From: Desulfobacterales bacterium
GTDB taxonomy: Bacteria > Desulfobacterota > Desulfobacteria > Desulfobacterales > JAHEIW01
NCBI GenBank assembly: GCA_030066985.1
Contig: JASJAN010000018.1
Location: 1,742 to 65,741 of the forward strand
Direction of reading: 5' to 3'
Length of the DNA stretch: 64,000 nucleotides
Position 1 is the stretch's first letter. Each line of letters opens with the position of its first letter. Shown in pieces: positions 4,139 to 19,945 of the stretch. Made by a program: the position numbers and the translations under genes. The notes beneath the pieces are model-generated. The model searched no databases. It saw only the letters and a program-made list of their open reading frames with translations, and was not told the origin of the DNA.

Positions 4139-5143
4139 ATGAAAATATGGAAATTAATCTTGTGCGGTTGCGGAGTGATGGGGCGTAAAACAGCCGAGGC
4201 ATTGCTGAGAAAACATTCCTACCAGATTGTCGGTGCTGTGGATATCCATTCAGATCTTGTCGGAAAGGATTTAGGGGATCTCTTTGAAAACCGGCACCAG
4301 ACCGGCGTTATTATTCATGAGAAAATAAAGGAACTTTTTGATTCCGTCAAAGCCGATGCTGTAATACTCACAACAACCTCCCACCTGGAAAATATCAAGC
4401 CGCAAATTGAGGAGTGCCTGGAGGCAGAGCTCAACGTTGTCTCAACTTGTGAAGAGCTGGCCTATCCCTGGATAAGGCATCCGGAGATCGCCAGCAGCAT
4501 CGACCGAAAAGCCAAAGAGAAGGGTGTTACCGTAGTGGGCACAGGCATTAATCCGGGATTTTTGATGGACACCCTGCCGGCAATCCTCACAGGTCCTTGT
4601 TTGAGCGTTGATTCGATCAAAGTTACGCGAATGATGGATTCTTTCAGACGCCGGGTTCCGTTCCAAAGAAAAGTCGGTACCGCCCTGAGCAGGGCGGAGT
4701 TTCGCCGACAAATCGAGAATGGTGTCATCACCGGTCACGTGGGCCTGTTGGAATCAATTAATATGATTGCCGCTGCCGTAAACTGGAAATTGGACGAGTT
4801 GGTTGAATTACCACCCAAGCCGGTCTTGGCCGAGACAGAAACAGACACCGCCCTTGGAGTTGTGACGGCTGGCAATGTGATTGGTCTTTCCAGTGTTGTC
4901 TATGCCAAGAAAGCTGGCCGTGAGGTCATCCGGCTTGAATTTGTCGCCAACGCTTCGGTGAAAGATGAGTACGATGAAATTATTATCGAAGGCCGTCCCC
5001 GGATTCATCAAAGGATCCTGGGTGGTGTTCATGGCGACTTGGGCACAGTAGCCATAACCATTAATACCATATCCCGAGCGGTGGAAGGCCCACCCGGGTT
5101 GAAAACTATGTTGGAATTGCCTCCAGCTGTCTATGTTCCCTGA
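4139..5143 (+). CDS. NAD(P)-dependent amine dehydrogenase / 2,4-diaminopentanoate dehydrogenase-like (DapB-related)
   Basis: N-terminal Rossmann motif GCGVMG and a GTGINPGFLMD motif. 334 aa. SD AGGAGA upstream. Confidence 0.5.
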   Translation: MKIWKLILCGCGVMGRKTAEALLRKHSYQIVGAVDIHSDLVGKDLGDLFENRHQTGVIIHEKIKELFDSVKADAVILTTTSHLENIKPQIEECLEAELNVVSTCEELAYPWIRHPEIASSIDRKAKEKGVTVVGTGINPGFLMDTLPAILTGPCLSVDSIKVTRMMDSFRRRVPFQRKVGTALSRAEFRRQIENGVITGHVGLLESINMIAAAVNWKLDELVELPPKPVLAETETDTALGVVTAGNVIGLSSVVYAKKAGREVIRLEFVANASVKDEYDEIIIEGRPRIHQRILGGVHGDLGTVAITINTISRAVEGPPGLKTMLELPPAVYVP

Positions 5144-5232: not shown

Positions 5233-6126
5233 TCATCCTAAAGCCAGAGCAACCATACCGCCTACCATAACAGTTGCACCAATAATGCGCTGTCTAATTT
5301 GTCCTTCACCTAACATCCGCGCACCCATCAAAGTACCGATAAGGATGCTGATCTCCCTTGCAGGTGCTACATAGCTGACTGGAGTAAAAACAAGCGCTGA
5401 AAGTATAAGAATATACGAAAGCGGAATTAACAGAGCAATTCCAATAACTTCCCGCCGATGGTGAGTCCACTCAAATCGAACTTTTTCCCAATTTGAAAGG
5501 GCATAGGGCGTCATAAGTAGCATCCGGCCGAAATTAGCTATGTAGTCGAGCAAGATGGGCGGGACAAGCCGGTTACTTACCGTGTATTTGTCAACCATTG
5601 TATAAGCTGCAATTGCAAGCCCGGTCAGAAGGGCATATCCAACTGCTCGACCTGAACCGGACATCAGCAGCAATTTTGGACTTCCCATGAGATATAACAT
5701 CCCGCACACGATAGCTGCCGCCCCGCATAAAGCCAATAAAGACGGTCTTTCCTGAAAAATTGTTATCGCTAGGAAGACGGTGATAACCGGCGCGGAACAC
5801 CGGGCCAAGGGATAGACCAGAGATAGATCGCCACTCCTGTATCCGCGCGTTAAAAGAAGAAAATATGCAGTGTGGAGCAGTGAAGATAAAGCAAGACACA
5901 GGATTTCAATACCGCCGATATGGGGCCGATATAAAACGGCAACAACGGCTGCAACCGGAAGATATATTACACTAGAAATCGCCCCAAAAAGCCAAATAAA
6001 CGGGACGCTACCGCCGGAATGTTTGGCGAAAAAATTCCAACTGGCATGAACAATTGCAGCAACCAAAATCAGCAGGAGTGCGATGCTGTTCATATGATGA
6101 TGCACCCTAAAGCCATCAGGACTCAT
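5233..6126 (-). CDS. DMT superfamily (EamA-like) transporter
   Basis: About 10 hydrophobic segments and a duplicated EamA-like architecture. The start is either ATG 6126 or Met12 (6093). Confidence 0.65.
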   Translation of the reverse strand: MSPDGFRVHHHMNSIALLLILVAAIVHASWNFFAKHSGGSVPFIWLFGAISSVIYLPVAAVVAVLYRPHIGGIEILCLALSSLLHTAYFLLLTRGYRSGDLSLVYPLARCSAPVITVFLAITIFQERPSLLALCGAAAIVCGMLYLMGSPKLLLMSGSGRAVGYALLTGLAIAAYTMVDKYTVSNRLVPPILLDYIANFGRMLLMTPYALSNWEKVRFEWTHHRREVIGIALLIPLSYILILSALVFTPVSYVAPAREISILIGTLMGARMLGEGQIRQRIIGATVMVGGMVALALG

Positions 6127-6318: not shown

Positions 6319-7527
6319 TTATGTCGTTAATTTTTCAACTGCTTGTTTGATTCTGTTCAATCCAGTTCTTATGCTTTCCATATCAGCAGCATAAGAAAGG
6401 CGAATGTATTCGTCGCAGCCGAATGCAGCCCCCGGCACCAACGCCACATGGCCCTCTTCCAAAAGATAAGAACACAGTTCCACCGAGCCTGCTATTCTGC
6501 GGCCCCTGTAAGATTTGGCAAAAAGCTCCGCCACATGGGGAAACGCATAAAAGGCCCCTTCCGGCATTCTGCAAGTAACACCGTCAATTTCGTTGAAGCT
6601 TTTTACGACATAATCACGCCGCTGCTGATAGGCGGCTCGCATCTTTTCAACCGATCTCTGATCACCCATCAAAGCCTCTTTCGCGGCATACTGAGCGATC
6701 GAATTAGGGTTCGATGTCATCTGCCCCTGAATTTTTGTCATGGCCTTGATTATTTCGCGTGGACCGGCGGCATATCCAATGCGCCACCCTGTCATGGCGT
6801 AAGCCTTGGATACCCCATTGACGGTGATAGTCCGCTCCTTGATCTCATCACCCAGACTCGCAATGCTGATAAACTCGTTATCGCCATAAACCAACTGCTC
6901 ATACATTTCATCAGCGATCAGGATCAGGTCATTTTTCAGCGCAAACTGTGCTACCACCTCCAATTCGTCGCGGGTGTAAACTTTGCCGGACGGGTTGCTG
7001 GGATTGCTGAATATGACAGCTCTGGTTCGTTTTGTAAGAACCCCGCTTAGGTCATCTGCCGTCGGGGCCAGTGCGGGTGACCGGGTCGTATCCACGAAAA
7101 CAGGTGATGCGCCGGCCAGGCTTACCTGGGCAGGATAGGTCACCCAGTGGGGGCTTAAAACAACAACCTCGTCGCCCGTGTCAAAGATCGCCTGAGATAT
7201 ATTGTAAAGCGTATGTTTGCCACCACACGACACAAGTATCTGTTCCGGTGAATAGTGAAGTGTGTTATCTTGCTCGAGCTTGCGGCAGATTGCTGCTTTT
7301 AGCGTGTCTATGCCTGCCACCGCAGTGTATTTTGTATATCCGGCATTAATGGCGTCTACCGCTTTGGCCTTTATGTTATGCGGGGTGTCAAAATCCGGTT
7401 CACCCATGGCGAAACTGATGATCTCGACCCCCTCCTGCTTTAATTGCTGGGCTTTTTCACCGATAGCAATGGTTTGGGATTCACCCATATTTTTGATTTT
7501 TTGCACAATAAATTTTTCGTAATCCAT
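6319..7527 (-). CDS. Class I PLP aminotransferase (aspartate/aromatic aminotransferase-like)
   Basis: SNPSNPSG and the PLP-lysine motif SKAYAMTGWRIGY. SD GGAGGT upstream. Confidence 0.85.
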   Translation of the reverse strand: MDYEKFIVQKIKNMGESQTIAIGEKAQQLKQEGVEIISFAMGEPDFDTPHNIKAKAVDAINAGYTKYTAVAGIDTLKAAICRKLEQDNTLHYSPEQILVSCGGKHTLYNISQAIFDTGDEVVVLSPHWVTYPAQVSLAGASPVFVDTTRSPALAPTADDLSGVLTKRTRAVIFSNPSNPSGKVYTRDELEVVAQFALKNDLILIADEMYEQLVYGDNEFISIASLGDEIKERTITVNGVSKAYAMTGWRIGYAAGPREIIKAMTKIQGQMTSNPNSIAQYAAKEALMGDQRSVEKMRAAYQQRRDYVVKSFNEIDGVTCRMPEGAFYAFPHVAELFAKSYRGRRIAGSVELCSYLLEEGHVALVPGAAFGCDEYIRLSYAADMESIRTGLNRIKQAVEKLTT

Positions 7528-7605
7528 GATAACCTCCAGATATGGCCCTGAATGCAGAAAAGCTTATTAGGTATCGCTTCTTCTGCGCATATCCTCTAAA
7601 TCGGT

Positions 7606-8478
7606 TTAACGCAGATATTTTTTTTCATTGTCTTTCATTTCCGGAACGCCTTGCAATTCGAACAGGTGATTTACCGGAACGAGTTTCTCATCAATATTTT
7701 CTATACTTCTATTTTGCCTGATCCGATTAAAAAGATCCTCCATCGCCTTTACGGCAACCCGCACGCCCTGATTGGCATAAATAACCATCTTGACTTTGCC
7801 GAGCTTTTCGATGTCCTTCTCCGTAAGACTGGGGTAATTCGTCGGGATAATAACCAGAGGAGTATCAAGATCCCAATTCTTGACAAATTCAAGGATCTCC
7901 TCCGGATCTGAAGATTTGGAATGGACTAAAATCGCATCGGCTCCAGCCCCTGCATACCGGTAAGCCCTCATTCGGGCTTCTTCCTGCCCCCAACCTGCAA
8001 TCAGGGCTTCGACGCGGGCGATTACCATAAAGTCGGATGTTGTTTGGGCGGATTTGGCAGCCTCTATTTTACCCTCAAATTCTTCTATCCGCAGCAGTTC
8101 TTGTCTGCCGCCTGCAAGAAGGCTGGTATCCTTGGGAAACTTCTTATCTTCAATTGAAACCGCAGCAATTCCGGCTTCCTCGTATCGTTTAACCATATAC
8201 ATCACGTTTGTGGCATTGCCATACCCCGTATCACAGTCCGCTACAATAGGAATATTAATGACTTCATTCATCGAACGCGCAGTCTCTAAAAACTGATTCA
8301 TCGAAATTAAGCTTGCATCCGGAATTCCATATGAGGTGGAAATTTCAAACCCACTGGCCCATACGCCATCAAAACCGGCTCTTTCTATCAGCTTAGCGCC
8401 TAAGCCATTGTGTGCCCCCGTAATCACAGTTAAAGGTTTTTTATCAAATAATTTGCGAAGCTGTTGTGCTTTCGTCAT
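7606..8478 (-). CDS. PEP mutase / isocitrate lyase superfamily enzyme, phosphonopyruvate-hydrolase-like
   Basis: 290 aa. ADCDTGYGN metal-binding Asp cluster. IEDKKFPKDTS (aa 109-119) is an EDK-x5-TS variant of the PepM EDK-x5-NS signature. It lacks the KxCGH loop of (methyl)isocitrate lyases. SD GAGGAGG upstream. Confidence 0.7.
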   Translation of the reverse strand: MTKAQQLRKLFDKKPLTVITGAHNGLGAKLIERAGFDGVWASGFEISTSYGIPDASLISMNQFLETARSMNEVINIPIVADCDTGYGNATNVMYMVKRYEEAGIAAVSIEDKKFPKDTSLLAGGRQELLRIEEFEGKIEAAKSAQTTSDFMVIARVEALIAGWGQEEARMRAYRYAGAGADAILVHSKSSDPEEILEFVKNWDLDTPLVIIPTNYPSLTEKDIEKLGKVKMVIYANQGVRVAVKAMEDLFNRIRQNRSIENIDEKLVPVNHLFELQGVPEMKDNEKKYLR

Positions 8479-8527
8479 TCCCAGTCCTCCTCGTGTATGT
8501 CGTCCATATGTCGAATTTGACTTGGCT

Positions 8528-9757
8528 TTAGCCGTGTATCGCTCTTTCCACCCTGTTTAAAACTTCTTCCAGAACACTACGGGGACATGCGAAATTGAGT
8601 CTCTGGAACCCGTCGCCGCCTTCGCCGAATACATAACCATCATCGAATACCACCCCGGCTTTTTCAATAATGAAATTGTGAAGCTCATCCTTATACATCC
8701 CGAGTTTTCTAAAATCCAGCCATGCCAAATGTGTCCCTTCGGGCCTGATCAGTTCAACCTGCGGCAGTTTCTCCTCTAAGTAATTGTCCAAAAAATTCAG
8801 GTTCTCTTCCAGATATTCCAGGCACTGCTCAAGCCATTCTTCTCCATAGTTATAAGCCGCCTCAACTGCAACAAGGCCAAAGGGATTCAATTGCTCATAA
8901 CCATTTTTTGATAATTCAAGTTCAAAAGCTTGGCGCAGTTTTTCGTTGGAAACAATAAGGTTTGCAGCCTGAACTCCTCCCAGATTAAACGCCTTATTGA
9001 CAGAAGTGCTGGCGATCGAGTTTAATGCGAATTCAGTCGATATACTCGCAAAGGGTGTATATTGATGCCCTTTATATACTGTATCCAGATGCACCTCATC
9101 CGATATAACAATAACATTGTGCCTCAAGCATATTTCGCCGACCTTTGTTAGTTCTTCCCTGCTCCATACTCTTCCCACGGGATTATGCGGATTGCACAAA
9201 AACATTAATTTGGCAAGAGGATCGCGAGCTTTTTCCTCAAGATCCTCCAAATCCAGGGTGTATCTTCTATTTTCTAATTTCAACGGACTCATCAGCGGTT
9301 GTCGCCCGTTTTTCAGTGTAGCCCCCATAAAAGGGAAATAAGCGGGAGTTGGAATTAACACTTTTTCCGAAACAGACGTAAAAGTATTGATAAGGATATG
9401 GATTGCTGAAGTAGTTCCCGGTGTGGGAACGATCCATTCAGGTTGAATATCCCAGTGGTGTCTTTTTTTCATCCAGTGACACACTGCTTTAAAATAGGCC
9501 GGGCTCTTTCCTGTGTAACCGAAAATTCCATGTGAGGCTCTTTTTACAAGAGCATCGATTATCGGTTGGGCCGTTTTGAAATCCATGTCTGCAACCCACA
9601 TTGGAATCGGACCGCCGGGTTCAAAATATCGTTCGGTATACACAAAATATTTGGTTGCCAAATCTTCGGGGAAAAAATTCCATTTATATGAGTTTGTGCC
9701 CTTGCGACTGACGACGGTGTCAAAATCGTATTTTATCCCTGATGATGATTTGTCCAT
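8528..9757 (-). CDS. MalY/PatB-type PLP enzyme (C-S beta-lyase / aminotransferase class I-II)
   Basis: DFDTVVSRKGTNSYKW start typical of PatB/MalY, then CNPHNPVGRVW. The ORF opens at 9805, but SD GGGGGAGGT sits 6 nt before ATG 9757. Confidence 0.75.
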   Translation of the reverse strand: MDKSSSGIKYDFDTVVSRKGTNSYKWNFFPEDLATKYFVYTERYFEPGGPIPMWVADMDFKTAQPIIDALVKRASHGIFGYTGKSPAYFKAVCHWMKKRHHWDIQPEWIVPTPGTTSAIHILINTFTSVSEKVLIPTPAYFPFMGATLKNGRQPLMSPLKLENRRYTLDLEDLEEKARDPLAKLMFLCNPHNPVGRVWSREELTKVGEICLRHNVIVISDEVHLDTVYKGHQYTPFASISTEFALNSIASTSVNKAFNLGGVQAANLIVSNEKLRQAFELELSKNGYEQLNPFGLVAVEAAYNYGEEWLEQCLEYLEENLNFLDNYLEEKLPQVELIRPEGTHLAWLDFRKLGMYKDELHNFIIEKAGVVFDDGYVFGEGGDGFQRLNFACPRSVLEEVLNRVERAIHG

Positions 9758-9825
9758 AGCTATAACCTCCCCCAATAGAATCAGATCCGAAGCCAGATGT
9801 GTCAATCAAAATCAAATTGGCTGAA

Positions 9826-10668
9826 CTAATAAACTTTTCTATATTTGGTATATTCTTTTTGCAATTTTCGCGTTATGGGTCCTGGCATACCGGTACCGAC
9901 TTTCCAGTCATCAACTTGAACGACGGGAAATATTTCCAAAGTACTTCCGGTAACAAGTAATTCGTCGGCTTCTTTTAGTCGGTCAACCGGTATCGGGGAC
10001 TCATTTACACCGATTCCCAGATTGTTGCAGAGTTCCAAAACCACCTGGCGAGTTATTCCCGCTAAAATTGAATTCGTATCCGGATAAGTATAAAATTGAT
10101 TTGAGAAAATTGCGCCAAAGTTAGTATGCGATCCTTCGGTAATGAATCCATCCCGAACCAGGACCGCCTCTTCCGCCTGCTGGTCTTTTGCCCGTTGGCA
10201 TGCAAGGACATTCGGGAGCAGCGCGATTGATTTGATGTCACAGCGTCCCCACCTGATATCCGGTTCTAAAACAACTTTGACGCCTTTTTCTCGTTTGCTC
10301 ACCGGCGGTTGAAAGGCAGAGGCAGCGGCATAAGCTGTTGGTGAAACGTCTTCACCCGGAAAAGCATGTTGTCGAGGGGCAGCCCCCCTTGTTACCTGGA
10401 TATAAAGGGTTGCGTCTGTATCCTGAAGCCTGTTGCGATGGATAAGCTTTTCCCCAATAGCTTTTAAATCCCCATTAAAAGGGTCCGGGATGCGCAGCTC
10501 TTTCAGGCTTTTTTCCATCCTTGCTATGTGCTCATGGGCTTTAAATAAATACCCGTTGTAGGACCTCATCACCTCATATAGCCCATCCCCTAATAAAAAG
10601 CCGCGATCATCGGGAGATATTTGAACGGCTTTCTTCGGCATGAATTCACCGTTGTAGTAGGCGATCAT
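9826..10668 (-). CDS. Class IV aminotransferase, D-amino-acid aminotransferase-like
   Basis: YYNGEF...ISPDDRGFLLGDGLYEV matches the Dat/IlvE fold-type IV N-terminus. The ORF opens at 10707; SD GGGAGGG precedes ATG 10668. Confidence 0.7.
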   Translation of the reverse strand: MIAYYNGEFMPKKAVQISPDDRGFLLGDGLYEVMRSYNGYLFKAHEHIARMEKSLKELRIPDPFNGDLKAIGEKLIHRNRLQDTDATLYIQVTRGAAPRQHAFPGEDVSPTAYAAASAFQPPVSKREKGVKVVLEPDIRWGRCDIKSIALLPNVLACQRAKDQQAEEAVLVRDGFITEGSHTNFGAIFSNQFYTYPDTNSILAGITRQVVLELCNNLGIGVNESPIPVDRLKEADELLVTGSTLEIFPVVQVDDWKVGTGMPGPITRKLQKEYTKYRKVY

Positions 10669-10786
10669 ATGCCCTCCCTTCGCAATTTTATCAATGCTTC
10701 CTGGCAAAAGTATTCATAAAATCGATCCGTTTCTTTTCACCTTCATATGACATAGAACGGATGAACCGGCGTGAAAATTTACCATT

Positions 10787-11689
10787 CTACGCATTTTCTT
10801 TTCCTTCAATGAATTCTTTTGCGATTACAAATACTTCCTCGCTGATTCTTAGAGAATTTTCCTCGCTGTTGGCTCCAATATGGGGGGTCATAATGACATT
10901 TGGCGATTTTAAAATCGGATAATCCGGGGCAGGAGGATCAGAAACCCAGACATCAGTGCAGTATGCTTTCAGGTGCCCACTTTTTAAAGCGGCTGAAACA
11001 TCTTCAGCAACAACGCAAGCCGCCCGACCTGTATTGATTAGAACGGCTCCCTTTTTCATAACGGCCAGGACGGCCTTGTTGATTATACCCCTGGTGGAAT
11101 TTGTCAGCGGGGTGTGAAGTGAAATATAGTCAGCCTCTCTGACAGCCTCTTGCAGAGTGGTTTTTATGTCGGCGTATTTGCTTGGCCGTCCGGACTGTCT
11201 GAAAGCTGTAACCTTCATGCCGAATGCAGCAGCTCTTTTGGCTATTTCAATCGCGATTCGGCCCATACCGATGAGACAAATGGTTTTACCGTAGAGTTCA
11301 GTCCATTTTAACTGTTGCTTGAGCCATTGTTTTTTTTGCATACTAGTGTGTGCTTCGATTATCCGGGAAGAGGTTGTCAGCATCATAGCAAAAGCGGTTT
11401 CGGCAACAGCAATTGAAGATGCTTGCGGCGTATTTTTAACACTGATACCCCTGGAAGCTGCGAATTCACCGTCAATATTATCGGTTCCTACACCGCCGCG
11501 GATAATCAGCTTGAGATTGGGCGCTGCTTCTAGATATTCTCTGGTACATTTCGTTTTGCTTCTTACAAGGAGAATATCCGCTTCCGGCAGTCGTTTCTTA
11601 TCTTTTGTTACCTCACCTATATCAGGCAGCTTCTTTTCCAATTCCGCGTCAAAGGTATCAGAAATTAGAATTAGCATAGCTTCCACCAA
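10787..11689 (-). CDS. D-isomer-specific 2-hydroxyacid dehydrogenase (SerA/PdxB/GyaR-like)
   Basis: NAD motif GMGRIAIEIAKRA, plus LHTPLT...G and TPHIGA. The start is GTG 11689 or ATG 11677. Confidence 0.8.
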   Translation of the reverse strand: MVEAMLILISDTFDAELEKKLPDIGEVTKDKKRLPEADILLVRSKTKCTREYLEAAPNLKLIIRGGVGTDNIDGEFAASRGISVKNTPQASSIAVAETAFAMMLTTSSRIIEAHTSMQKKQWLKQQLKWTELYGKTICLIGMGRIAIEIAKRAAAFGMKVTAFRQSGRPSKYADIKTTLQEAVREADYISLHTPLTNSTRGIINKAVLAVMKKGAVLINTGRAACVVAEDVSAALKSGHLKAYCTDVWVSDPPAPDYPILKSPNVIMTPHIGANSEENSLRISEEVFVIAKEFIEGKENA

Positions 11690-11712
11690 CGAAATCCTTT
11701 GTATGGGTTTTT

Positions 11713-12765
11713 CTATCCTTCGGGCTTATTTAACAACAGGTCTTCATTTTCAATTTTTGGGAAATTATGCTCATCTAAGTATTTAAAATATTCATCTAAA
11801 TACAGAAACGGGCTATCAGGACAAACGAAAACACATACAATTTCGCCGTTTTTACTTCTTAATCCATCGAAGGTATCTTTGTTTTTTCTTTGGTGTAAAT
11901 ATTTTAACAATCCTGCCAACGCGAAGCCGGAACTCGGACCCACCAGTATGCCCTGCCGACTCAGTGCCATGCTAGTTTTATAAGACGCCGCGGTTTCAAC
12001 TCTCTGGATATCATCAACATGCGGGCGCCATTCAAAACCGATTAATCGCAATAATGCTTCCGTCCTTACCCCCGGGGTATAAGTATCCGCCTCTCTCATT
12101 ACACCAACGACTTGAACTTTGCTTTCCTTGCTCTTGAGATAGGTCGAGGTACCGATAATTGTGCCGGTGGTCCCCAGACCGGCACAAAAAACACTTATAT
12201 TTCCTTCTGTTTGTTCCCAGATTTGCTTTCCGGTCCATTTTTGATGGGCTTTGGGGTTGTCTTTATTATCGTATTGTCCTGGATTAACCCAACTATCCTT
12301 TTTACCCAGCTTTTTGGCTTTATAAATTCCGCTGGTCGGATCAGTGGGATCCGGCCAGTCGGGCTCCTGGTTGACAATCGGCTCGACACCGAAGAACAGC
12401 AGCATAACTAATTTTTGCCAGGAAACTTCGGTCGGCACAAAAGATTTGATTTTATCAATACCCAGCATTCGGGCCACCAGCGCGATTGAAAAGACCGTGT
12501 TGCCGGAAGAATTTTCAATAACCTGTTCAACCCCTTTTAGCTCTCCGCGCTTACGCATTTCAAGCAGCATGTTGTAGGCCGGCATGCACTTTACGTTTCC
12601 TAAAGGCAAAAAGGTCATGAGTTTGGCAAATATTCTAACTTTATCGTCGAAAAAGGGGTTGAGATCCTCAGGCAGCTCCACTAAAGGCAAGTAAGGATGC
12701 ATACCGGGATTCAAAAAATCCTTAAGTGAGTTCCTGCCTTTAAAAGTATTTAAATCTTTCGCCAT
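11713..12765 (-). CDS. Fold-type II PLP enzyme (cysteine synthase / Trp-synthase-beta-like), specificity unknown
   Basis: Candidate Schiff-base Lys in LGNVKCMPAYNML. Phosphate-binding loop GLGTTGTIIG. The ORF opens at 12849, but SD AAGGAA precedes Met29 (ATG 12765). Confidence 0.65.
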   Translation of the reverse strand: MAKDLNTFKGRNSLKDFLNPGMHPYLPLVELPEDLNPFFDDKVRIFAKLMTFLPLGNVKCMPAYNMLLEMRKRGELKGVEQVIENSSGNTVFSIALVARMLGIDKIKSFVPTEVSWQKLVMLLFFGVEPIVNQEPDWPDPTDPTSGIYKAKKLGKKDSWVNPGQYDNKDNPKAHQKWTGKQIWEQTEGNISVFCAGLGTTGTIIGTSTYLKSKESKVQVVGVMREADTYTPGVRTEALLRLIGFEWRPHVDDIQRVETAASYKTSMALSRQGILVGPSSGFALAGLLKYLHQRKNKDTFDGLRSKNGEIVCVFVCPDSPFLYLDEYFKYLDEHNFPKIENEDLLLNKPEG

Positions 12766-12859
12766 TTGCGGTTCCTTGTTGAATTGGTAGGATAAAGTAG
12801 GTCCAAGTGAAGCAGCGCTCCATTGTGGATCATGGAGCGCTGCTTTCATTTTTGCGTTG

Positions 12860-13873
12860 CTACCTTAATTTTTTCTTGATCCCTTCCCATGTTTTGGTGA
12901 GGGTCGGGTGGTCTTTGGAGGCTTTACTCTGATCGATATCGATATATTTTAAATCGCCCAAAGCTGGCAGATCTGTCAGCTTTTCGACTGCGATATCGCC
13001 GCGGGTGGGCCTCCTGAAGCTTTTTACAAACAGAGCTTCCTGGGCCTCCTTAGAGCAGAAGAAGTCATACATGAGCTTGGCTTCGTCAGGATTCTTGGCG
13101 CCCTTAATTAAGACAACCCCTTCGGGAGATAAAAAGGAGCCGTCTTTGGGATAGATGATGCCGATTTCTTTCTGCCCCCCGGCAACATATGTGTAAGCGG
13201 CATATTCCATGGTGATCCCCAGGGCGTATTCGCCCATTGCCACACCTTTGTATACCATGCTGGTACTGGGCACGTTTTTCACAACTGCCGCTAGCTTTTC
13301 CAGTCCCTCTTTTCCGTATAATTTGTTAAAACCATAAGCCTGGATATAGGTGGAGCTCGATTTAACCGGATTGCCCATGACGACTTTGCCCTTCCATTTG
13401 GGATCAAAAAGGTCTGACCATTTTTGGGGCAGCTCGCTTTTAGACACAAGCTTGGAGTTGTACATAATGACCATGGGATGAATATTCACACCGGTCCACA
13501 TATTGTTTTTCTCAATGAACTCCGGTTTGATGCCTTTGGCTTCTGGTGAAGAATACGGCTGAAAATTTTCCATATATGCTCCCAGGGTCCCAAAGCCACC
13601 GCTCCAAAATACATCGCCCAAAGGGTTGTCTTTTTCCGCGCTTATTCTTTTCATCAGGGCACCTGACCCGGCCCTCACCACAGAAACAGAAATATCGGGA
13701 TGTTTTTCTTTAAACATTTTTACGGCAAGATCAATAACCTCTTGTTTGTTGGAAGAATACAGTACTACTTTTCCCGCGGCAGCTTCTTCCAGGGGAAACA
13801 AAACACCCGTGGTTAAAGTGATCGTAAGGAAAAGGCTTAAAACCATAAATACGGCAACTCTTGAAAATCTCAT
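12860..13873 (-). CDS. ABC transporter periplasmic binding protein (Fe3+/thiamine/2-aminoethylphosphonate-type family 1)
   Basis: Signal/anchor MRFSRVAVFMVLSLFLTITL. Length and sequence pattern fit the FbpA/PhnS-like cluster. SD AAAGGAGAG before ATG 13873 (the ORF opens at 13918). Confidence 0.7.
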   Translation of the reverse strand: MRFSRVAVFMVLSLFLTITLTTGVLFPLEEAAAGKVVLYSSNKQEVIDLAVKMFKEKHPDISVSVVRAGSGALMKRISAEKDNPLGDVFWSGGFGTLGAYMENFQPYSSPEAKGIKPEFIEKNNMWTGVNIHPMVIMYNSKLVSKSELPQKWSDLFDPKWKGKVVMGNPVKSSSTYIQAYGFNKLYGKEGLEKLAAVVKNVPSTSMVYKGVAMGEYALGITMEYAAYTYVAGGQKEIGIIYPKDGSFLSPEGVVLIKGAKNPDEAKLMYDFFCSKEAQEALFVKSFRRPTRGDIAVEKLTDLPALGDLKYIDIDQSKASKDHPTLTKTWEGIKKKLR

Positions 13874-14014
13874 AATTTCTCTCCTTTCTAATGGATCAAT
13901 ATTAATTTTATGTAACACCTCGCTTCATTTATTGGTGTTTTACCACCTCCTTCCTTTTTCAATTGAATCTGGGCACACCTTACATTGACGGCGATAGAAC
14001 CAATTGTTTAAACA

Positions 14015-15667
14015 CTATTTTGCTGCAAATACATCGATCTTAAAAAATTTAATGGCAATAAATAACGGAAGGAAAATGGCCGCGATCAGCACCGAAGCAT
14101 AAGCAGAAGCGGTACCAAATTCCCCGCTGTCAATCTGCTGAAATATCTGGATCGGCATGGTGGACCACTCGCCGAAGTAAAGCACGATTGTAGCGGCGAG
14201 TTCTGCAAGAGTGCCGACCCACATGAGAAGCGCACCGGCAACAAGCGCCGGCATCATCAGCGGCATTACCACTTTAAAAAATGATTTCAAAGGTGAGACG
14301 CCAAGATTGATGGAAGCCTCCTCCATAGATTCCTTTATGTTATACAAAACCGAAGAGCTCGTCCTGATGGCAAATGGGACTTTGCGCACGAAATAGGCCA
14401 CCAGCATGATGACCCAGCTTCCGGTGAGAACCAAAAAGCCTTTGTTGAAAGTCGTAATAAGGGAAATCCCCAGAACAGTGCCCGCAACTGCCAATGGAAA
14501 CATCACCAGCATATCCAGAAGATAAGTTGCCTTGGAGCGCCTTTTTACCAAGACATAACTTGTAAATGTGGCGAAAACGAAACCGATTATGGTCGCAGTG
14601 GTGGCCAAAAATAGTGAATTATAGACGGCCCTCGGCGCCAGTGTAAAAGCCTTAACATAACTCTCTATGCTGAATTGGCCGTAATGAAGGACTGGACCGA
14701 TGCTTTTGGTAAAGGAGGCCACCAGGCACACAAGGATGCTAAAAAGGGACAGAAAGATAAGTCCGAAGCAAAATATTAATACCAGAGTTCTTGGTACCGG
14801 TGAGAGAGTTCTGGACCGCGGGGCTCGACCGGATTCCATCTGATATGCCTTTCTTTCGACAACCCTTTTCTGAATGATAAGCACAATCGTTGTAATAATT
14901 AACAACACCATTGACAGCGTGCTCGCCATCAATGGGCTTCCCCCCATTTCACTCACGAATTCATTGTAAGCTTCCACAGATAAAATTGGCAGGCTTTCTG
15001 CCAAAATGACCGGTACGCCAAAATTTTCTATTACCAGGGTAAAAACCACTAATGAGCTGGCCAAAATCGAAGGTGCAATCACGGGAAAGGTCACTGTCAG
15101 ATAAGTACGAAAGGGGCTCGATCCCAGATTCCGGGCTGCGTCTTCCAGGGAAGAATCAATGGAACCCATCGCCGATGAAACCATTAAGAACATAAACGCC
15201 CAATGCTGCATGGTTAGAACAATGATAAGACCCGGCCAACCATAGATGGAGGGTAGCTCCACACCGATTAATCTTAACCATTCGGTCACAAAACCGCTTC
15301 TGCCCACTGTCAGGATCCATGATTCAGCCACAATAATGGTCGGTAGAATAAGGGTGAGCAATGGTAGGGTGCGAATCACATTTTTAAAGGGAAGTTCATA
15401 GCGTGTTACGATAAATGCCATGGTGACCCCGATAATAAGGCAAAGTACCGTAACTACGGAGCTGAGGATGAGGCTGTTGAACATGGCTGAGCGGTAAACG
15501 TGATCGGTGATAAATGTATAATACCCTTCAAGAGAAAATTTTCCTGTTGATGGTGACGTAAAGCTCACACCGAATAAAGAAAGCAGGGGATATAGAACGA
15601 ACAATATCAACACAAAGAAGGCCACTATGGTGATTAAAGTCCAGATATTAAAACGGTGCAGTTTCAT
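14015..15667 (-). CDS. ABC transporter permease, fused double domain
   Basis: 550 aa with about 12 TM segments. Two EAA loops: LEDAARNLGSSPFRTYLTVTFP and MEEASINLGVSPLKSFFKVVMP. Confidence 0.85.
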   Translation of the reverse strand: MKLHRFNIWTLITIVAFFVLILFVLYPLLSLFGVSFTSPSTGKFSLEGYYTFITDHVYRSAMFNSLILSSVVTVLCLIIGVTMAFIVTRYELPFKNVIRTLPLLTLILPTIIVAESWILTVGRSGFVTEWLRLIGVELPSIYGWPGLIIVLTMQHWAFMFLMVSSAMGSIDSSLEDAARNLGSSPFRTYLTVTFPVIAPSILASSLVVFTLVIENFGVPVILAESLPILSVEAYNEFVSEMGGSPLMASTLSMVLLIITTIVLIIQKRVVERKAYQMESGRAPRSRTLSPVPRTLVLIFCFGLIFLSLFSILVCLVASFTKSIGPVLHYGQFSIESYVKAFTLAPRAVYNSLFLATTATIIGFVFATFTSYVLVKRRSKATYLLDMLVMFPLAVAGTVLGISLITTFNKGFLVLTGSWVIMLVAYFVRKVPFAIRTSSSVLYNIKESMEEASINLGVSPLKSFFKVVMPLMMPALVAGALLMWVGTLAELAATIVLYFGEWSTMPIQIFQQIDSGEFGTASAYASVLIAAIFLPLFIAIKFFKIDVFAAK

Positions 15668-15677
15668 AAAAATCTTC

Positions 15678-16745
15678 CTATATATCTAATATTCGACAGT
15701 TAGCGGATATGTTTAGGGTAACCTCCTGTCCGACGCTTTTTATTCCTGAGTCGTCTATGTTTTGTTTTTCGACCTTGAGTTCTATGCCTTCAAAGGCCTG
15801 AATCCTGTATTTGACCATGGATCCCATAAACATGACACTGACCACGCGACCTTTAAGGGTATTTACACCCTCATCATTCCCGTCAACGATGTAAATTTCC
15901 TCGGGCCTTAGACAGCAAAGCACGTTTGACGAAAGCTTTTTGGTATTTGAAACCTGGATCTCCTCGCCATCGATATCCAAAACAGCCATATCCTTTCCGT
16001 TGTTACTCGATACGACCCGGGCTTCAATGAGATTGGCAGAACCGATAAAACCAGCCACAAACCGGTTGGCGGGATTGCGGTATACATCCATGGGAGAACC
16101 GATTTGCTCGATGCACCCTTGCCTCATTACCGCAACCCGATCAGAAACGGAGACCGCTTCTTCCTGATCGTGGGTTACAAATATGGTGGTAATCCCGACT
16201 TCCTTCTGGAGCCGCTTGATGACCTCCCTCATGTTGATGCGCAGTTTTGCATCGAGATTCGAAAGGGGTTCATCCATTAGCAACACTTCGGGCTCAATGA
16301 CAAGGGCCCGCGCCAGTGCTACGCGTTGCTGCTGCCCGCCGCTCAGTGCGTTCGGATATCGCCTTGTTAACCCGCCGAGTTCAACCTTTTCTAACATGGC
16401 GTTGACTTTGCGGTCGATATCCTTCTTGCTTTCTTTTCTGGCCTTCAGACCATAAGCGACGTTGTCGTAAATGGACATGTTCGGAAACAACGCGTAATCC
16501 TGAAAAACCATGCCCGTGTTCCGTTTGTGGGCTGGAACGGAATTCATGCGTTTATCCTCGAAATACACATCACCTTCCTGGGGATCGATGAAGCCCGCCA
16601 CAACTCTCATGGTCGTTGTTTTCCCGCATCCGCTGGGGCCCAATAGTGTAAAAAATTCTCCATCATTGATCTCCAGGGTCAAATTATCAATGGCTTTAAA
16701 GCTGCCGAAGTACTTTGTTATATTTTTCAGGTTAACTTGTGCCAT
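15678..16745 (-). CDS. ABC transporter ATP-binding protein (PotA/FbpC/PhnT-like)
   Basis: Walker A GPSGCGKTT, signature LSGGQQQRVALARAL, Walker B LLMDEPLS and a C-terminal TOBE-like domain. Confidence 0.9.
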   Translation of the reverse strand: MAQVNLKNITKYFGSFKAIDNLTLEINDGEFFTLLGPSGCGKTTTMRVVAGFIDPQEGDVYFEDKRMNSVPAHKRNTGMVFQDYALFPNMSIYDNVAYGLKARKESKKDIDRKVNAMLEKVELGGLTRRYPNALSGGQQQRVALARALVIEPEVLLMDEPLSNLDAKLRINMREVIKRLQKEVGITTIFVTHDQEEAVSVSDRVAVMRQGCIEQIGSPMDVYRNPANRFVAGFIGSANLIEARVVSSNNGKDMAVLDIDGEEIQVSNTKKLSSNVLCCLRPEEIYIVDGNDEGVNTLKGRVVSVMFMGSMVKYRIQAFEGIELKVEKQNIDDSGIKSVGQEVTLNISANCRILDI

Positions 16746-16821: not shown

Positions 16822-18039
16822 TCAACCGGCAATGATTTGGTAGCAATATCCTGCAATCAGGGAACCAGCGATACCCGCCCCAAGGTAAATCGCAAACGTT
16901 TGTCTTTTGACTAGTGCAAACACAGCCGTCATGGCTGGGATCGTTGTTACCGGCCCGGCAATCAAAAAGGCCAGCGCCGCTCCCTGGCTCATTCCATTCT
17001 TGAGAAGTCCATCGACGATTGGAATCGCACCCACCCCTGAGGTATAGACAGGAATACCAATGGCGGTGGCAAGTGGTATGGAAAAAAGCTGATTTTTACC
17101 AAGGGCAGCGGAGATCCAGCTTGGATCGACATAATGCACAATAAGCGATTCAAGTATGAAAGCAATAAGCAGCCATTTGCCAAGGAATAAGGAAACTTTC
17201 AAAGCTTCAGGCCAAAAATTGCTCCAAAATTTCGAACCCGAGCTATCCGTTTTATCCTCCGAACTGCAGCATGAGCTTTGTGACAGGCTCAACCCGTGGA
17301 GTTGATTATTTAGCAGGCCGGAAGCTGACAAAAAATATATGATATAGCCGGCTCCTGCTCCCAAGAAAACCGCGGTAACAAGCCGGGCTAAAGCAAAATC
17401 GATCCCCAGCACACCGGCAGTAAGAACAAACATGGACGGCCCCATTAATGGTGAACTAATCCAAAACGCCATTACGGGCGCAAGCGGTACGCCGCTTGCC
17501 AACAAAGCGGCAATCAAGGGAATAACGCCACAAGAGCATAGCGGTATGGTGGCGCCAACGATAGCGGCGCCTGCGATGGCGATTTTCTCCCTCCGGTAGA
17601 ATACCGCTTTGATACGCTCCGAAAAACCGGACACCGTGACCCAGGCAGCTATACCAACACCCAAAAGGAAGAAAGGCAGGATTGACCATACCGCTTTGCC
17701 AACAAAGGCAAGATTTGAGATGATTTCACGCCAAAAGATTTCCGGCCTGATGCCGGGAACAAAGCCAGCACTCAAAATCAAGATCGTTATACCGGTTAAG
17801 CCCGCTATACCCCAAAGCCAAAACGACGTATTCATGAAAGCAAATTTAGGATGTACAGGGTCTGCTAAACTTCCCTCTGATGTGACTGTATCGCCGGCTG
17901 AATTTTCACAGCAGGGCAGATGGAATGGCTCTTGAACGGGCGAAGATTCCAGAATTTGAGCTCCCGTCGCTGTTGTACAGCAACTTATAGTCGTCATTTC
18001 TTTTTGGTTTTTCTTTTCTACCCTTTGATCATCGTCCAT
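16822..18039 (-). CDS. COG0701/ArsP-like permease with Cys-rich N-terminal extension
   Basis: Membrane protein with a PLCSCGVIPL motif. Vicinal Cys pairs at aa 20-21 and 43-44, plus SSCCSS in the central loop. An ArsR gene lies directly upstream. Confidence 0.65.
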   Translation of the reverse strand: MDDDQRVEKKNQKEMTTISCCTTATGAQILESSPVQEPFHLPCCENSAGDTVTSEGSLADPVHPKFAFMNTSFWLWGIAGLTGITILILSAGFVPGIRPEIFWREIISNLAFVGKAVWSILPFFLLGVGIAAWVTVSGFSERIKAVFYRREKIAIAGAAIVGATIPLCSCGVIPLIAALLASGVPLAPVMAFWISSPLMGPSMFVLTAGVLGIDFALARLVTAVFLGAGAGYIIYFLSASGLLNNQLHGLSLSQSSCCSSEDKTDSSGSKFWSNFWPEALKVSLFLGKWLLIAFILESLIVHYVDPSWISAALGKNQLFSIPLATAIGIPVYTSGVGAIPIVDGLLKNGMSQGAALAFLIAGPVTTIPAMTAVFALVKRQTFAIYLGAGIAGSLIAGYCYQIIAG

Positions 18040-18126: not shown

Positions 18127-18444
18127 TCAACCACAATCTTTAATACCTTTACAGCATTCGGATTGAAGAAAATCTAACAATTCATCCAACGAATCATACT
18201 GGGCAGTGCAATAGAGCGTCCTGCTTTCACGATTTTGCTTAATTAATCCGACGGAAACCAACCGTGAAATATGGTGGGACAAGGTAGAACCCGGCAACCC
18301 CAAGGCTTTTTGGATCTCCCCCACCGGAACGCCGTCATGTCCGACTTTCACCAAATATCGAAAAATGGACAGCCGGGTGGTATGGCCCAGTTCACTCAAT
18401 CTTTTGGCTGCATCTTCATGTTTCATGAAAACAAGATAAAGCAT
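18127..18444 (-). CDS. ArsR/SmtB family transcriptional regulator
   Basis: Winged HTH: RLSIFRYLVKVGHDGVPVGEIQKALGLPGSTLSHHISRLVSVGLIK. C-terminal Cys pair ECCKGIKDCG. Confidence 0.85.
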   Translation of the reverse strand: MLYLVFMKHEDAAKRLSELGHTTRLSIFRYLVKVGHDGVPVGEIQKALGLPGSTLSHHISRLVSVGLIKQNRESRTLYCTAQYDSLDELLDFLQSECCKGIKDCG

Positions 18445-18763: not shown

Positions 18764-19945
18764 TTATGTGTATTTCTTGATTGCCCTTTCAAAGCCCGGC
18801 ATCGAATTTTTAATCACATGGTCATCCACGCAAAACGCAATTCTAAAGTGACCAGGTCCATCAAAGCCGCTGCCCGGCACCACCAGAACACGTTCCTCTT
18901 TAAGCGCATTGGCAAATTCGACATCGTCTGGAATCGGTGAGCGCGGAAAAAGGTAAAATGTCCCCGGCGGTTTGATAAATTCATATCCAAATGCGGCCAG
19001 GCCATCACACAGCATTTCCCGTTTACGTGCATATTCAGTTATCTCCACACTCATCCCCTGCATGCAGGCTACCACGCGCTGCATCAGCGCCGGTGCATTG
19101 ACAAAGCCCAAAATGCGATTGGCAACCGTCATACCGGCGACCAGATCGTTTTTATAGGTGGCCGCGGGGTTAATAGCAATAAATCCGATGCGCTCACCGG
19201 GAATTGAAATATCCTTCGAATAGGAGGTGCCGATAATGCTTTCTTTATAGCTGGTAAATATGCTCGGCACTTTAACATTGTCGTAAACGATTTTACGATA
19301 GGGTTCGTCTGAGACCAGGTAGATCGTGCGTTTGTAATCTTTGCTCTTCTTTTCCAATAAGGCACCCAGTGCCACCAGATCTTCTTCAGGGTAAACCTGC
19401 CCGGTCGGGTTGTTGGGCGAGTTGATCAATACGGCTTTGGTTTTTGCGGTAATGGCGTCGGACATGGCATCTAAATCGAGTTGAAAATCGGGTTTGGACT
19501 GAACCGTTTTTAAGACCCCGCCATGATTGTCGGCATAAAATTTATATTCAACAAAACAGGGCGCCGGTGTAAGAACTTCGTCACCCGGATCAAGTATCGT
19601 TTTCAAAGCCACGTTGAGAGCACCCGAGGCGCCGCACGTCATCATGACTTCAAAGTCGGTAACTGGGGCTTGCTGTTCTTCAGCCAAATAATCGGCTACA
19701 GAGCCGCACACCATCGGATAACCGGTATTGGGCATATAGCAATGATCCCCCAGCCCGCAGGAGTCCACCGTATCCCTGAGCAATTCATTAAATTTTTCGG
19801 GCGGTGGCAAATTCGGATTTCCCAGGCTAAAATCATAGACTTTATCGGATCCGTATTGAGCCTTGAGTTGCGCTCCTTCTTCAAACATCTTCCGGATGAA
19901 AGACGCCCTTGATATGATATCTTCAATTTTCTTCGAAATGCTCAT
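18764..19945 (-). CDS. Class I/II PLP aminotransferase (AlaA/AspC-like)
   Basis: INSPNNPTG and SYSKDISIPGERIGF. SD GAGGTTGGAGAG upstream. Confidence 0.85.
   Translation of the reverse strand: MSISKKIEDIISRASFIRKMFEEGAQLKAQYGSDKVYDFSLGNPNLPPPEKFNELLRDTVDSCGLGDHCYMPNTGYPMVCGSVADYLAEEQQAPVTDFEVMMTCGASGALNVALKTILDPGDEVLTPAPCFVEYKFYADNHGGVLKTVQSKPDFQLDLDAMSDAITAKTKAVLINSPNNPTGQVYPEEDLVALGALLEKKSKDYKRTIYLVSDEPYRKIVYDNVKVPSIFTSYKESIIGTSYSKDISIPGERIGFIAINPAATYKNDLVAGMTVANRILGFVNAPALMQRVVACMQGMSVEITEYARKREMLCDGLAAFGYEFIKPPGTFYLFPRSPIPDDVEFANALKEERVLVVPGSGFDGPGHFRIAFCVDDHVIKNSMPGFERAIKKYT

Follow-up and report, generated by a model that had tools for sequence, protein, structure and literature searches.

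What does a bacterium gain from a gene cluster in which a phosphonate-type importer, an enzyme of the phosphoenolpyruvate (PEP) mutase superfamily and several pyridoxal-5-phosphate (PLP) enzymes stand together behind a putative arsenic-sensing regulator? This question is raised by a 64-kb stretch of DNA from a Desulfobacterales bacterium (contig JASJAN010000018.1; hereafter the window, meaning the whole stretch that was analysed), which holds nine such genes on its minus strand between positions 6319 and 16745. Tentatively, and with somewhat less than even confidence, we regard the cluster as an arsenic-island-associated operon that serves to take up and use three-carbon phosph(on)o amino acids and in which two modules are fused. 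This reading, an arsenic-island operon of the phosphonoalanine (pal) type, is favoured because arsenic islands carry phosphorus uptake genes and an As(III)-type ArsR sits upstream. In the first module, an importer of the PhnS2/AfuA class would take up phosphonoalanine or a close analogue, an AspC-type aminotransferase would convert the L-form to phosphonopyruvate, and a class IV transaminase plausibly would do the same for the D-form. An enzyme of the PEP mutase/phosphonopyruvate hydrolase clade (PEPM) would then remove the phosphorus, either by hydrolysis to pyruvate and phosphate, which is favoured for the Thr118 form, or by a downhill mutase reaction to PEP. The second module, lying between the binding-protein and PEPM genes, would comprise a PALP-domain enzyme acting on O-phosphoserine (OPS), a dehydrogenase resembling phosphoglycerate dehydrogenase (PGDH), PatB and, in sister loci, SerC and RidA. 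Phosphoserine could there be converted to phosphate and a beta-substituted alanine, for instance cysteine, be joined to an acidic amino acid, or be returned to 3-phosphoglycerate via SerC and PGDH. The benefit would be arsenate-free phosphorus, and possibly a thiol or chelator, under arsenic stress, in line with an ArsR of the As(III) type and a permease resembling ArsP. The functions given here to the cluster genes are deduced from homology and gene neighbourhood.

The conserved unit and its pal-like core

The same gene order is kept in the related loci L087, L088 and L178/L179 (PEPM 83–85% or PALP enzyme 89% identical to the window's), and because of this the cluster is a real, selected unit, not a chance arrangement. 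An earlier note on this DNA, made from the sequence alone, had described nine same-strand genes and proposed to check the conservation of their neighbourhood. All nine are present in the ORF list at the coordinates given below, the gene-family calls are borne out for each by Pfam and NCBIfam, and at least three close relatives carry the cluster as well. On identical contigs, the public annotation sets the starts of four genes further in (binding protein 337 aa, dehydrogenase 296 aa, D-transaminase 280 aa, PatB 409 aa), and with these starts the intergenic gaps are 10, 141, 10, 35, 118, 68, 49 and 78 nt, matching the roughly 10–140 nt estimated before. Among 80 loci around PEPM homologs from species-representative genomes, a set that does not contain the window's own lineage, the nine-gene neighbourhood was not found and only partial pal-like layouts were seen; the full neighbourhood came solely from exact-protein look-ups. 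In the sister loci L087, L088 and L178, a bona fide SerC gene (TIGR01364, 490.7 vs cut-off 443.6) follows the dehydrogenase gene and a RidA deaminase gene follows patB; no SerC was found in the 64-kb window. The L088 copy has its PALP and dehydrogenase genes each called as two fragments (L088:4393–6260), reflecting decay or assembly errors, with SerC, D-transaminase, PatB, RidA, PEPM and aminotransferase genes intact.

The importer consists of an ATP-binding cassette (ABC) ATPase (15678–16745, minus strand like all cluster genes; ABC_tran and TOBE_2), a fused double permease (14015–15667; two BPD_transp_1 stretches) and a periplasmic binding protein of the Fe3+/AfuA/PhnS class (12860–13918, gene callers' start 13873; SBP_bac_6/8). 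Their best NCBIfam models are PhnT2, PhnU2 and PhnS2, and all three score below cut-off (ATPase 378.8 vs 457.7; binding protein 130 bits vs 392.75). The best solved relatives of the binding protein are 4R72 (AfuA-type), 8X1A (iron(III)-compound-binding) and 6WCE (pyridoxal-5-phosphate binding), and iron-binding proteins rank among and below the AfuA-type and pyridoxal-5-phosphate binders. AfuA is a sugar phosphate binder, and this kinship fits an organic phosph(on)ate ligand without proving one.

The clearest counterpart to the core of the cluster is locus L028 from a Syntrophaceae metagenome-assembled genome (MAG), which runs LysR, a short unassigned ORF (84 aa), PEPM, aminotransferase, ATPase, fused permease and binding protein, with identities to the window of 60% for PEPM, 55% for the aminotransferase, 59% for the ATPase, 63% for the fused permease and 66% for the binding protein. 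The canonical phosphonoalanine cluster comprises palR (LysR), palA (hydrolase), palB (aminotransferase) and palCDE (transport) (PMC10574752), and judged by gene content the L028 layout equals palR/palA/palB/palCDE. A PALP gene downstream of the L028 importer was considered and set aside as an ordinary threonine synthase after a 430-nt gap, no relative of the window enzyme. In Alphaproteobacterial loci, PEPM adjoins an aminotransferase that is 40–45% identical to the window's, and L057 also has the importer; the window aminotransferase (6319–7527; Aminotran_1_2, best models aspartate aminotransferases), which occupies a PalB-like position, is 45–46% identical to those in L108 and L126. Because L028 and the Alphaproteobacterial loci keep these genes together, the importer, AspC-type aminotransferase and PEPM enzyme of the window are, by sequence and gene order, orthologous to a pal-type unit. 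The remaining four enzyme genes, six in the sister loci, make up an insert that separates the binding-protein gene from that of PEPM.

The PEPM enzyme (7606–8478; PF13714 over residues 7–253) aligns without gaps over residues 1–290 to PalA 2DUA, and the superfamily fold (PEP mutase/isocitrate lyase) spans its full length. According to a survey rule, EDKx5NS denotes a PEP mutase, and PalA has Thr at the Asn position. The window enzyme reads EDKKFPKDTS, with PalA's Thr and the one-residue-longer loop; the mutase motif is absent both here, where TS is found, and in the sisters, where NS comes with EEK. The whole >90% cluster of the window enzyme has EDKKFPKDTS, orthologs in the same conserved gene cluster have EEKKFPKDNS or EEKKFPKDTS, and EDK..TS, EEK..NS and, rarely, EEK..TS coexist inside single clusters of >90% identity. 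Residues 111 and 118 of the protein covary, Asp with Thr and Glu with Asn (P0001–P0005, P0270–P0281), which suggests two equivalent solutions rather than two activities. The Thr motif as decisive proof of a hydrolase was withdrawn, since Asn occurs in sister orthologs and in most of the clade, and the choice between hydrolase and mutase is not settled by the sequences. For catabolism such swapping would be tolerable, as either product is useful, whereas for biosynthesis it would not. A mutase run from phosphonopyruvate to PEP, the thermodynamically favoured direction, would serve catabolism as well as a hydrolase and would save a high-energy phosphate, an attractive prospect for energy-limited anaerobes.

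Neighbours of the PEPM clade point in the same direction. Relatives mostly adjoin importers, LysR regulators and hydroxyacid dehydrogenases, not a decarboxylase; around Asn-type members, PhnS2-type importers, an NAD_binding_2 dehydrogenase (20 loci) and an L-sulfolactate-dehydrogenase-like Ldh_2 are found. No neighbour family of the phosphonopyruvate decarboxylase (Ppd) type stood out near clade relatives, among which not every neighbour cluster was annotated. These neighbourhoods argue for, in the sense of fitting, catabolism. A widespread anaerobe-MAG cluster around Asn-type PEPM (L089–L092, L004, L015, L025) was also observed, with LysR, PEPM, an unclassified NAD_binding_2 dehydrogenase, a PhnS2-type importer and, in some, Ldh_2; by its gene content it could represent phosphonolactate catabolism, perhaps with a PEP mutase run catabolically. 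In the window, no Ppd gene lies in the cluster, and the sole thiamine diphosphate enzyme seen is a POR_N/TPP_enzyme_C protein 28 kb off. The earlier note had taken the presence of an importer and the absence of a decarboxylase as grounds for a catabolic logic, an argument that proves weak: the PF00155 aminotransferase and PF02826 dehydrogenase adjoin PEPM, decarboxylase-free biosynthetic starts exist that pair the PEP mutase Ppm with a PalB-like aminotransferase (phosphonoalamides) or with the VlpB 2-hydroxyacid dehydrogenase (valinophos), and metallophore loci carry importers.

The phosphoserine insert and its arsenic-gene neighbours

The first gene of the insert (11713–12849) encodes a fold-type II PLP enzyme whose nearest characterised kin is fungal. 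In phmmer searches it matches 8H4H/8H4Q at E 1e-79 (271 bits), against ~1e-36 (~127 bits) for CBS/CysM. Its AlphaFold (AF2) model has a pLDDT of 84.6, with residues 1–31 disordered, and the true start is probably ~28 codons downstream. The top Foldseek matches are aspergillomarasmine A (AMA) synthetase in its apo form and in its OPS complex (E 4e-39, 41–42% identity, TMq 0.84), 8H4H being identified as such by its Foldseek description; other matches reach 23–35% identity and a TMq of ~0.65. By sequence and predicted structure, the enzyme is closer to AMA synthase than to CysK, CysM or CBS, so that the cysteine-synthase fold first proposed for it holds, while its identity is refined to that of an AMA-synthase relative. 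At 378 aa it ends at the PALP domain, without the C-terminal rhodanese domain; the fungal chains have 525–531 aa. In the account of Guo et al. (2020) that PMC12751119 relays, fungal AMA synthase acts on O-phosphoserine and L-aspartate to give the chelators toxin A and AMA. By analogy, the window enzyme is a putative user of O-phosphoserine and an amino-acid amine. Three cysteines (C222, C339, C343), located on predicted beta-strands that adjoin the PLP phosphate loop, are conserved in 86–99% of 77 family members and in the fungal enzyme. Literature searches on 8H4H, or on PLP and cysteine-synthase genes in ars operons, yielded nothing on the PALP enzyme family, and no paper was found that describes PLP enzymes as ars genes or links this family to ars operons.

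The genes next to it are consistent with a phosphoserine theme. The short D-2-hydroxyacid dehydrogenase (10787–11689; 2-Hacid_dh and 2-Hacid_dh_C; SerA-type or VlpB-type) has PGDH as its best NCBIfam model, and all of its best solved relatives are phosphoglycerate dehydrogenases. Because it is PGDH-like and SerC stands next to it in sister loci, its reaction may form or use up phosphoserine, and not phosphonolactate; with SerC in the sisters, it would make or consume exactly the O-phosphoserine expected for the PALP enzyme. The idea of a catabolic funnel, in which transaminases and a dehydrogenase feed one 2-oxo acid to PEPM, therefore survives in part: clade relatives do adjoin hydroxyacid dehydrogenases beside importers and LysR, but the window's own dehydrogenase is PGDH-like and keeps company with SerC in the sisters. 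Phosphoserine-type genes (SerC, PGDH-like) lie beside the PALP enzyme in three lineages, the PALP-SerC pair recurring independently in L104/L105 and the PALP-dehydrogenase pair in L099. The insert is completed by the class IV D-amino-acid transaminase (9826–10707; TIGR01121 282.7, just above the cut-off of 277.45), the best solved relative of which is a Bacillus D-amino-acid aminotransferase, and by a C-S (beta-) lyase of the PatB/MalY family (8528–9805; TIGR04350 438 vs cut-off 340), with PatB, cystalysin and MalY as best solved relatives.

Upstream of the importer lie genes of an arsenic type, a context that the earlier note had missed, just as it had given PatB no role. The regulator of the ArsR/SmtB family (18127–18444, minus strand; Pfam HTH_20/HTH_5, NCBIfam metalloregulator ArsR/SmtB) ends in ECCKGIKDC, placing C97, C98 and C104 in a C-terminal CC-x5-C arrangement. 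At the level of a motif match, this spacing equals that of the type 2 As(III) site of AfArsR, Cys95/96/102 (PMC11868830), and the regulator's ligand would accordingly be As(III). It is followed by a permease of the ArsP_1 family (16822–18039, minus strand; PF03773), 76 nt upstream of the ATPase gene, a putative exporter of metal(loids) or organoarsenicals with a PLCSCG motif, several Cys-Cys pairs and weak scores on Cu/Zn efflux and SaoE models. Orthologs of both lie beside the cluster in L087 (ArsR 82%, permease 80% identical), an HTH_20 gene and an ArsP_1 gene lie beside it in L178, and an Acr3 gene above cut-off is found 3.4 kb upstream of the L178 cluster. Arsenic islands are reported to carry extra pst and phn phosphorus-uptake operons, for which the proposed reason is phosphorus acquisition under arsenate competition (PMC3834237); by analogy, an As(III)-type ArsR followed by a pal-type unit is in keeping with this phosphorus theme.

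The PALP family itself carries the arsenic link further. In a set of 76 further loci (55–70% identity), neighbours were clustered and the recurrent ones annotated. ArsA, ArsD, ArsR or an aquaglyceroporin (MIP) lies within four genes of the PALP gene in 33 of the 76, and ArsA or ArsD alone within that distance in 16, whereas no ArsA, ArsD, aquaglyceroporin or Acr3 was found in the 80 control loci around PEPM homologs. Other recurrent neighbours are PatB-family lyases (above cut-off, within three genes in ~18 loci), ArgE-like deacetylases (10 loci), DoeB/aspartoacylase-like deacylases (5), GltI-like ABC importers of the Glu/Asp type (8), SerC and Acr3. Among ars-linked examples (L096, L108, L143, L145, L174, L180), L174:1920–11577 packs eleven genes tightly, including ArsR, ArsR, a Glu/Asp-type ABC importer, PALP, ArsD, ArsA, an aquaglyceroporin and PatB, and L180 has an ArsC-like gene (below cut-off), ArsD, ArsA and a homocysteine synthase beside PALP. 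Two further loci connect the family with pal-type genes: L108 has an aminotransferase-PEPM(Thr)-PALP-ArsR-ArsD-ArsA run, and L126 an aminotransferase-PEPM(Thr)-PALP arrangement beside LysR and a HIBADH-like dehydrogenase, with ars genes absent from the vicinity; a truncated contig, L128, has a PEPM-PALP pair. Importer type and gene order in L108, L126 and L128 differ from the window, and the PALP-family module is thus linked to PalB/PalA-type genes twice, independently, in the window lineage and in L108/L126. Bacterial AMA-synthase-like enzymes paired with PatB lyases recur in ars operons and are apparently new there to the literature. As a separate observation, one PALP subclade (55–58% identical to the window; L161, L166, L168, L170–L173, L175–L177) follows a regulator of the FUR family and a MinD/ArsA-like P-loop NTPase of no assigned class, with Cys339 replaced in most members, which suggests a metal-regulated variant.

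On the same strand, the transcription unit probably extends past the nine genes, with ArsR and the ArsP-like permease upstream and an EamA/DMT permease (5233–6126, minus strand; Pfam EamA) 192 nt downstream; co-transcription of the cluster is expected from this arrangement. The best NCBIfam model of the EamA protein is a 'phosphonate utilization associated putative membrane protein', below cut-off, and an EamA gene also follows the cluster in L081–L086, L088 and L178, with a TauE gene behind it in L088 and L178. An Rfam scan of 4–22 kb was uninformative. The unit is flanked by a 2,4-diaminopentanoate-dehydrogenase-like gene (ornithine fermentation type, below cut-off) at 4139–5143 on the plus strand, and a PRK06836-type aminotransferase, above cut-off, lies at 18764–19945 on the minus strand, 319 nt upstream of ArsR and in the same orientation. 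Ten more ORFs scanned across 22.6–55.1 kb included no phosphonate or arsenic genes; most of those between 31 and 53 kb belong to acyl-CoA metabolism. This region (31173–52828) holds a thiolase-like gene, a fused 3-hydroxyacyl-CoA dehydrogenase/enoyl-CoA hydratase, several AMP-binding ligases, a 2-hydroxyglutaryl-CoA dehydratase D-component and a fused B12-binding/MeaB/methylmalonyl-CoA-mutase protein of 1092 aa (IcmF-like).

Weighing the possible functions

A number of observations weigh against an arsenic-island operon of the pal type. On the side of the PEPM enzyme, the scores fall below cut-off both for the PalA model (TIGR02321, 350.8 vs 374.4) and for the Ppm model (TIGR02320, 296 vs 319.55), PalA 2DUA (322.9) and Streptomyces PEP mutase 5UNC (326.2) are matched with about equal bit scores, and in a neighbour-joining tree of 202 sequences the enzyme falls into a large clade of 69–85% identity that mostly has Asn. 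PalA stands in a separate Thr clade of that tree. The phylogeny proposed in the earlier note for 7606–8478 thus gave a mixed outcome: the enzyme nests in a mostly Asn clade away from PalA, and no adjacent decarboxylase family stood out among the neighbour clusters that were annotated. Likewise, of the proposed route from phosphonoalanine through phosphonopyruvate to pyruvate and phosphate, the pal-like core stands, while PEPM as a hydrolase is left unsettled by its sub-threshold score and Asn-dominated clade. On the side of the locus, the window cluster has no LysR regulator gene, promoter and terminator scans defined no transcription-unit boundaries, and ArsA, ArsD, Acr3 and aquaglyceroporin are all missing from the 64-kb window, where ArsB and ArsC were not screened for. 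On the side of the insert, PatB and the D-amino-acid transaminase are without a demonstrated role; among characterised enzymes the one nearest to the PALP enzyme is biosynthetic, SerA and SerC normally supply phosphoserine, and the second module therefore looks anabolic.

An unlikely alternative is the biosynthesis of a phosphonate-containing, marasmine-like aminopolycarboxylate serving as a metallophore. Here PEPM would be a PEP mutase, and the AspC-type aminotransferase would draw off phosphonopyruvate as phosphonoalanine, which is aspartate's phosphonate counterpart. The PGDH-like enzyme and SerC would give OPS, which the AMA-synthase-like enzyme would couple to phosphonoalanine, as AMA synthase is described to condense OPS with L-Asp, and the D-transaminase would provide a D-unit. 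EamA, TauE and the ArsP-like permease would export the product, the Fe3+-class ABC system would re-import its metal complex, and ArsR/SmtB would control the operon as a metal sensor. An architecture of regulator, exporter, importer and enzymes does fit a metallophore locus, the sister orthologs have the mutase-diagnostic Asn, Ppm with PF00155 and Ppm with PF02826 are recognised decarboxylase-free starts, one PALP subclade adjoins FUR-family regulators, and SerC, a GltI-like importer and ArgE-like and DoeB-like deacylases near the family elsewhere could supply OPS and Asp/Glu. However, Thr is fixed across the window's >90% cluster, the canonical EDKx5NS is absent from window and sisters alike, and N and T are swapped among orthologs. 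Moreover, L028 has the enzyme, aminotransferase and importer with LysR and nothing else, a catabolic layout, and a biosynthetic scheme leaves PatB and RidA unexplained and lacks a ligase or other tailoring genes.

The arsenic linkage would be explained most directly by arsonate metabolism on 3-arsonoalanine, 3-arsonolactate and 3-arsonopyruvate, which we consider quite improbable. In one form, the PALP enzyme would add arsenite to the OPS-derived aminoacrylate and so form a C-As bond; in another, an arsono amino acid would be imported and lose its arsenite through the PALP enzyme and PatB. The transaminases would yield arsonopyruvate for cleavage by PEPM, and arsenic would leave via ArsP, EamA or Acr3-type exporters. 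PEP mutase reportedly turns over 3-arsonopyruvate, as the Dixon group is said to have found in 1995. Further points in favour are the ars linkage of 33 of 76 PALP loci and of none of 80 PEPM control loci, the L108 run from aminotransferase to ArsA, the type 2 ArsR site and CSC permease of the window, Acr3 beside the sister cluster L178, and the acceptance of arsonopyruvate as an intermediate of bisenarsan formation (PMC12159101). Against this, no natural arsono amino acids are known, and literature searches on arsonoalanine, arsonopyruvate and arsenite with phosphoserine gave nothing on the enzyme family. The nucleophiles of AMA-synthase-type enzymes are amines; a cell would gain nothing obvious from producing arsenate internally or taking up toxic arsenicals; L126 keeps its arrangement with LysR and no ars gene; and the linkage between ars genes and phosphorus acquisition has a simpler known explanation (PMC3834237). 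The three conserved cysteines of the PALP enzyme were tried as an As(III) site, but the model places them on two beta-strands, C339 being separated from C343 by four positions, a predicted geometry poorly suited to such a site, and are not counted as evidence. Slighter still is the likelihood of a PLP-based arsenic chemistry, in which arsenite or another arsenic nucleophile would be joined to the C3 skeleton of OPS, or eliminated from an arsono amino acid, and compounds of the 3-arsonoalanine type would pass by transamination to arsonopyruvate and then to PEPM cleavage or export.

As improbable as arsonate metabolism, in our estimate, is a mosaic of independent stress-supply modules, merely co-located and co-regulated, in which phosphonate use would stand beside a sulfur-amino-acid or thiol supply made of phosphoserine synthesis, an O-phosphoserine sulfhydrylase-like enzyme and PatB as cystathionine beta-lyase. 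Arsenic islands are indeed built piecemeal from functionally related operons (PMC3834237), most PALP loci have no PEPM and most PEPM loci no PALP, and the company of the PALP family (PatB, homocysteine synthase in L180, ArgE-like deacetylases, amino-acid ABC importers) is typical of sulfur-amino-acid salvage. The PALP enzyme is, however, far nearer AMA synthase than any cysteine synthase; it adjoins aminotransferase-PEPM in two independent lineages with different gene orders; and the insert sits inside the pal-like unit, with gaps of 10–118 nt, not beside it.

A sulfonate version, in which imported cysteate or sulfolactate would become sulfopyruvate for cleavage by PEPM, is very improbable and was rejected on redox balance and profile scores: although PEP mutase binds sulfopyruvate (1M1B, which we take to be a sulfopyruvate complex, is among the solved relatives of PEPM), a relative's cluster has the L-sulfolactate-dehydrogenase-like Ldh_2, TauE-family permeases follow the cluster in L088 and L178, and PALP matches the cysteate synthase CapA weakly (102 bits vs cut-off 600), the cleavage to pyruvate and sulfite suggested in the earlier note needs two electrons and is not redox-balanced, PalA-type hydrolysis would give sulfate, useless to a sulfite respirer, the PEPM region around the diagnostic loop closely matches PalA, the importer's best models are phosphonate-type, and PALP stays far under cysteate synthase cut-offs.

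Known systems and biological meaning

The gene set as a whole was not found in the literature searched, in agreement with the earlier remark that no characterised pathway with it is known, and its parts resemble several known systems. With the pal pathway of Variovorax sp. Pal2 and Burkholderia cepacia Pal6, the window shares a PEPM-superfamily enzyme, a class I aminotransferase and a transporter, as well as PalA's Thr in EDKx5TS and its loop length. It differs in an ArsR-type rather than LysR regulator, in four extra enzyme genes (six in sister loci), in an enzyme that lies outside the PalA clade, below the TIGR02321 cut-off and with its Thr polymorphic with Asn in orthologs, and in a host of the Desulfobacterales/Thermodesulfobacteriota type; of the known palA genes, 99% belong to Pseudomonadota (PMC10574752). 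Of the known systems the pal cluster is the nearest, and judged by its genes the cluster described here is a variant of it, found in a new group of hosts and equipped with a regulator and an insert that are both new. Decarboxylase-free Ppm starts resemble it in bringing PF13714, PF00155 and PF02826 together, but the cluster has no EDKx5NS, ligase, nonribosomal peptide synthetase or tailoring genes, has a binding-protein-dependent importer, and its relatives' layouts combine LysR with an importer. The PALP enzyme is like the AMA synthase of Aspergillus oryzae (8H4H/8H4Q), and more distantly SbnA and Fda4, in sequence and structure; it differs as a bacterial protein without a rhodanese domain, in an arsenic-resistance and pal-like context instead of a fungal two-gene cluster. 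The ars islands of Li et al. (2013) share the type 2 Cys ArsR, the ArsP-family permease and the linkage of phosphorus genes to arsenic genes, and resemble sister L178 in the Acr3 beside its cluster, but the phosphorus genes of the window are pal-type catabolic, not pstSCAB or phnCDE. Finally, the bisenarsan (bsn) cluster of Streptomyces provides a precedent for phosphonate-type enzymes acting on arsonate analogues, from arsenoenolpyruvate through arsonopyruvate to arsonoacetaldehyde (PMC12159101), whereas the window locus lacks the EPSP-synthase homolog, the phosphoglycerate-mutase-family enzyme and the Ppd homolog that bsn employs.

If the reading of the core is true, pal-type C-P cleavage would reach from aerobic Pseudomonadota into anaerobic sediment lineages, and phosphonate use would be tied to arsenic stress. 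The D/T-E/N swaps question the EDKx5NS/TS motif by which surveys split phosphonate producers from degraders, as an EDKx5NS filter would misfile or drop the window's PEPM clade, and they leave room for a possible 'catabolic PEP mutase' that would save the phosphoryl group as PEP. Bacterial AMA-synthase relatives with PatB lyases, SerC and acidic-amino-acid importers form a candidate new ars gene family and a lead to an arsenic-linked metabolite or pathway; should PLP-based arsenic chemistry prove true, they would stand for a biological route, new to science, by which C-As bonds are made or broken, and for a new logic of arsenic detoxification. Metallo-beta-lactamase inhibition has drawn interest to aminopolycarboxylates of the AMA type, and a bacterial branch of these enzymes may be useful in its own right.

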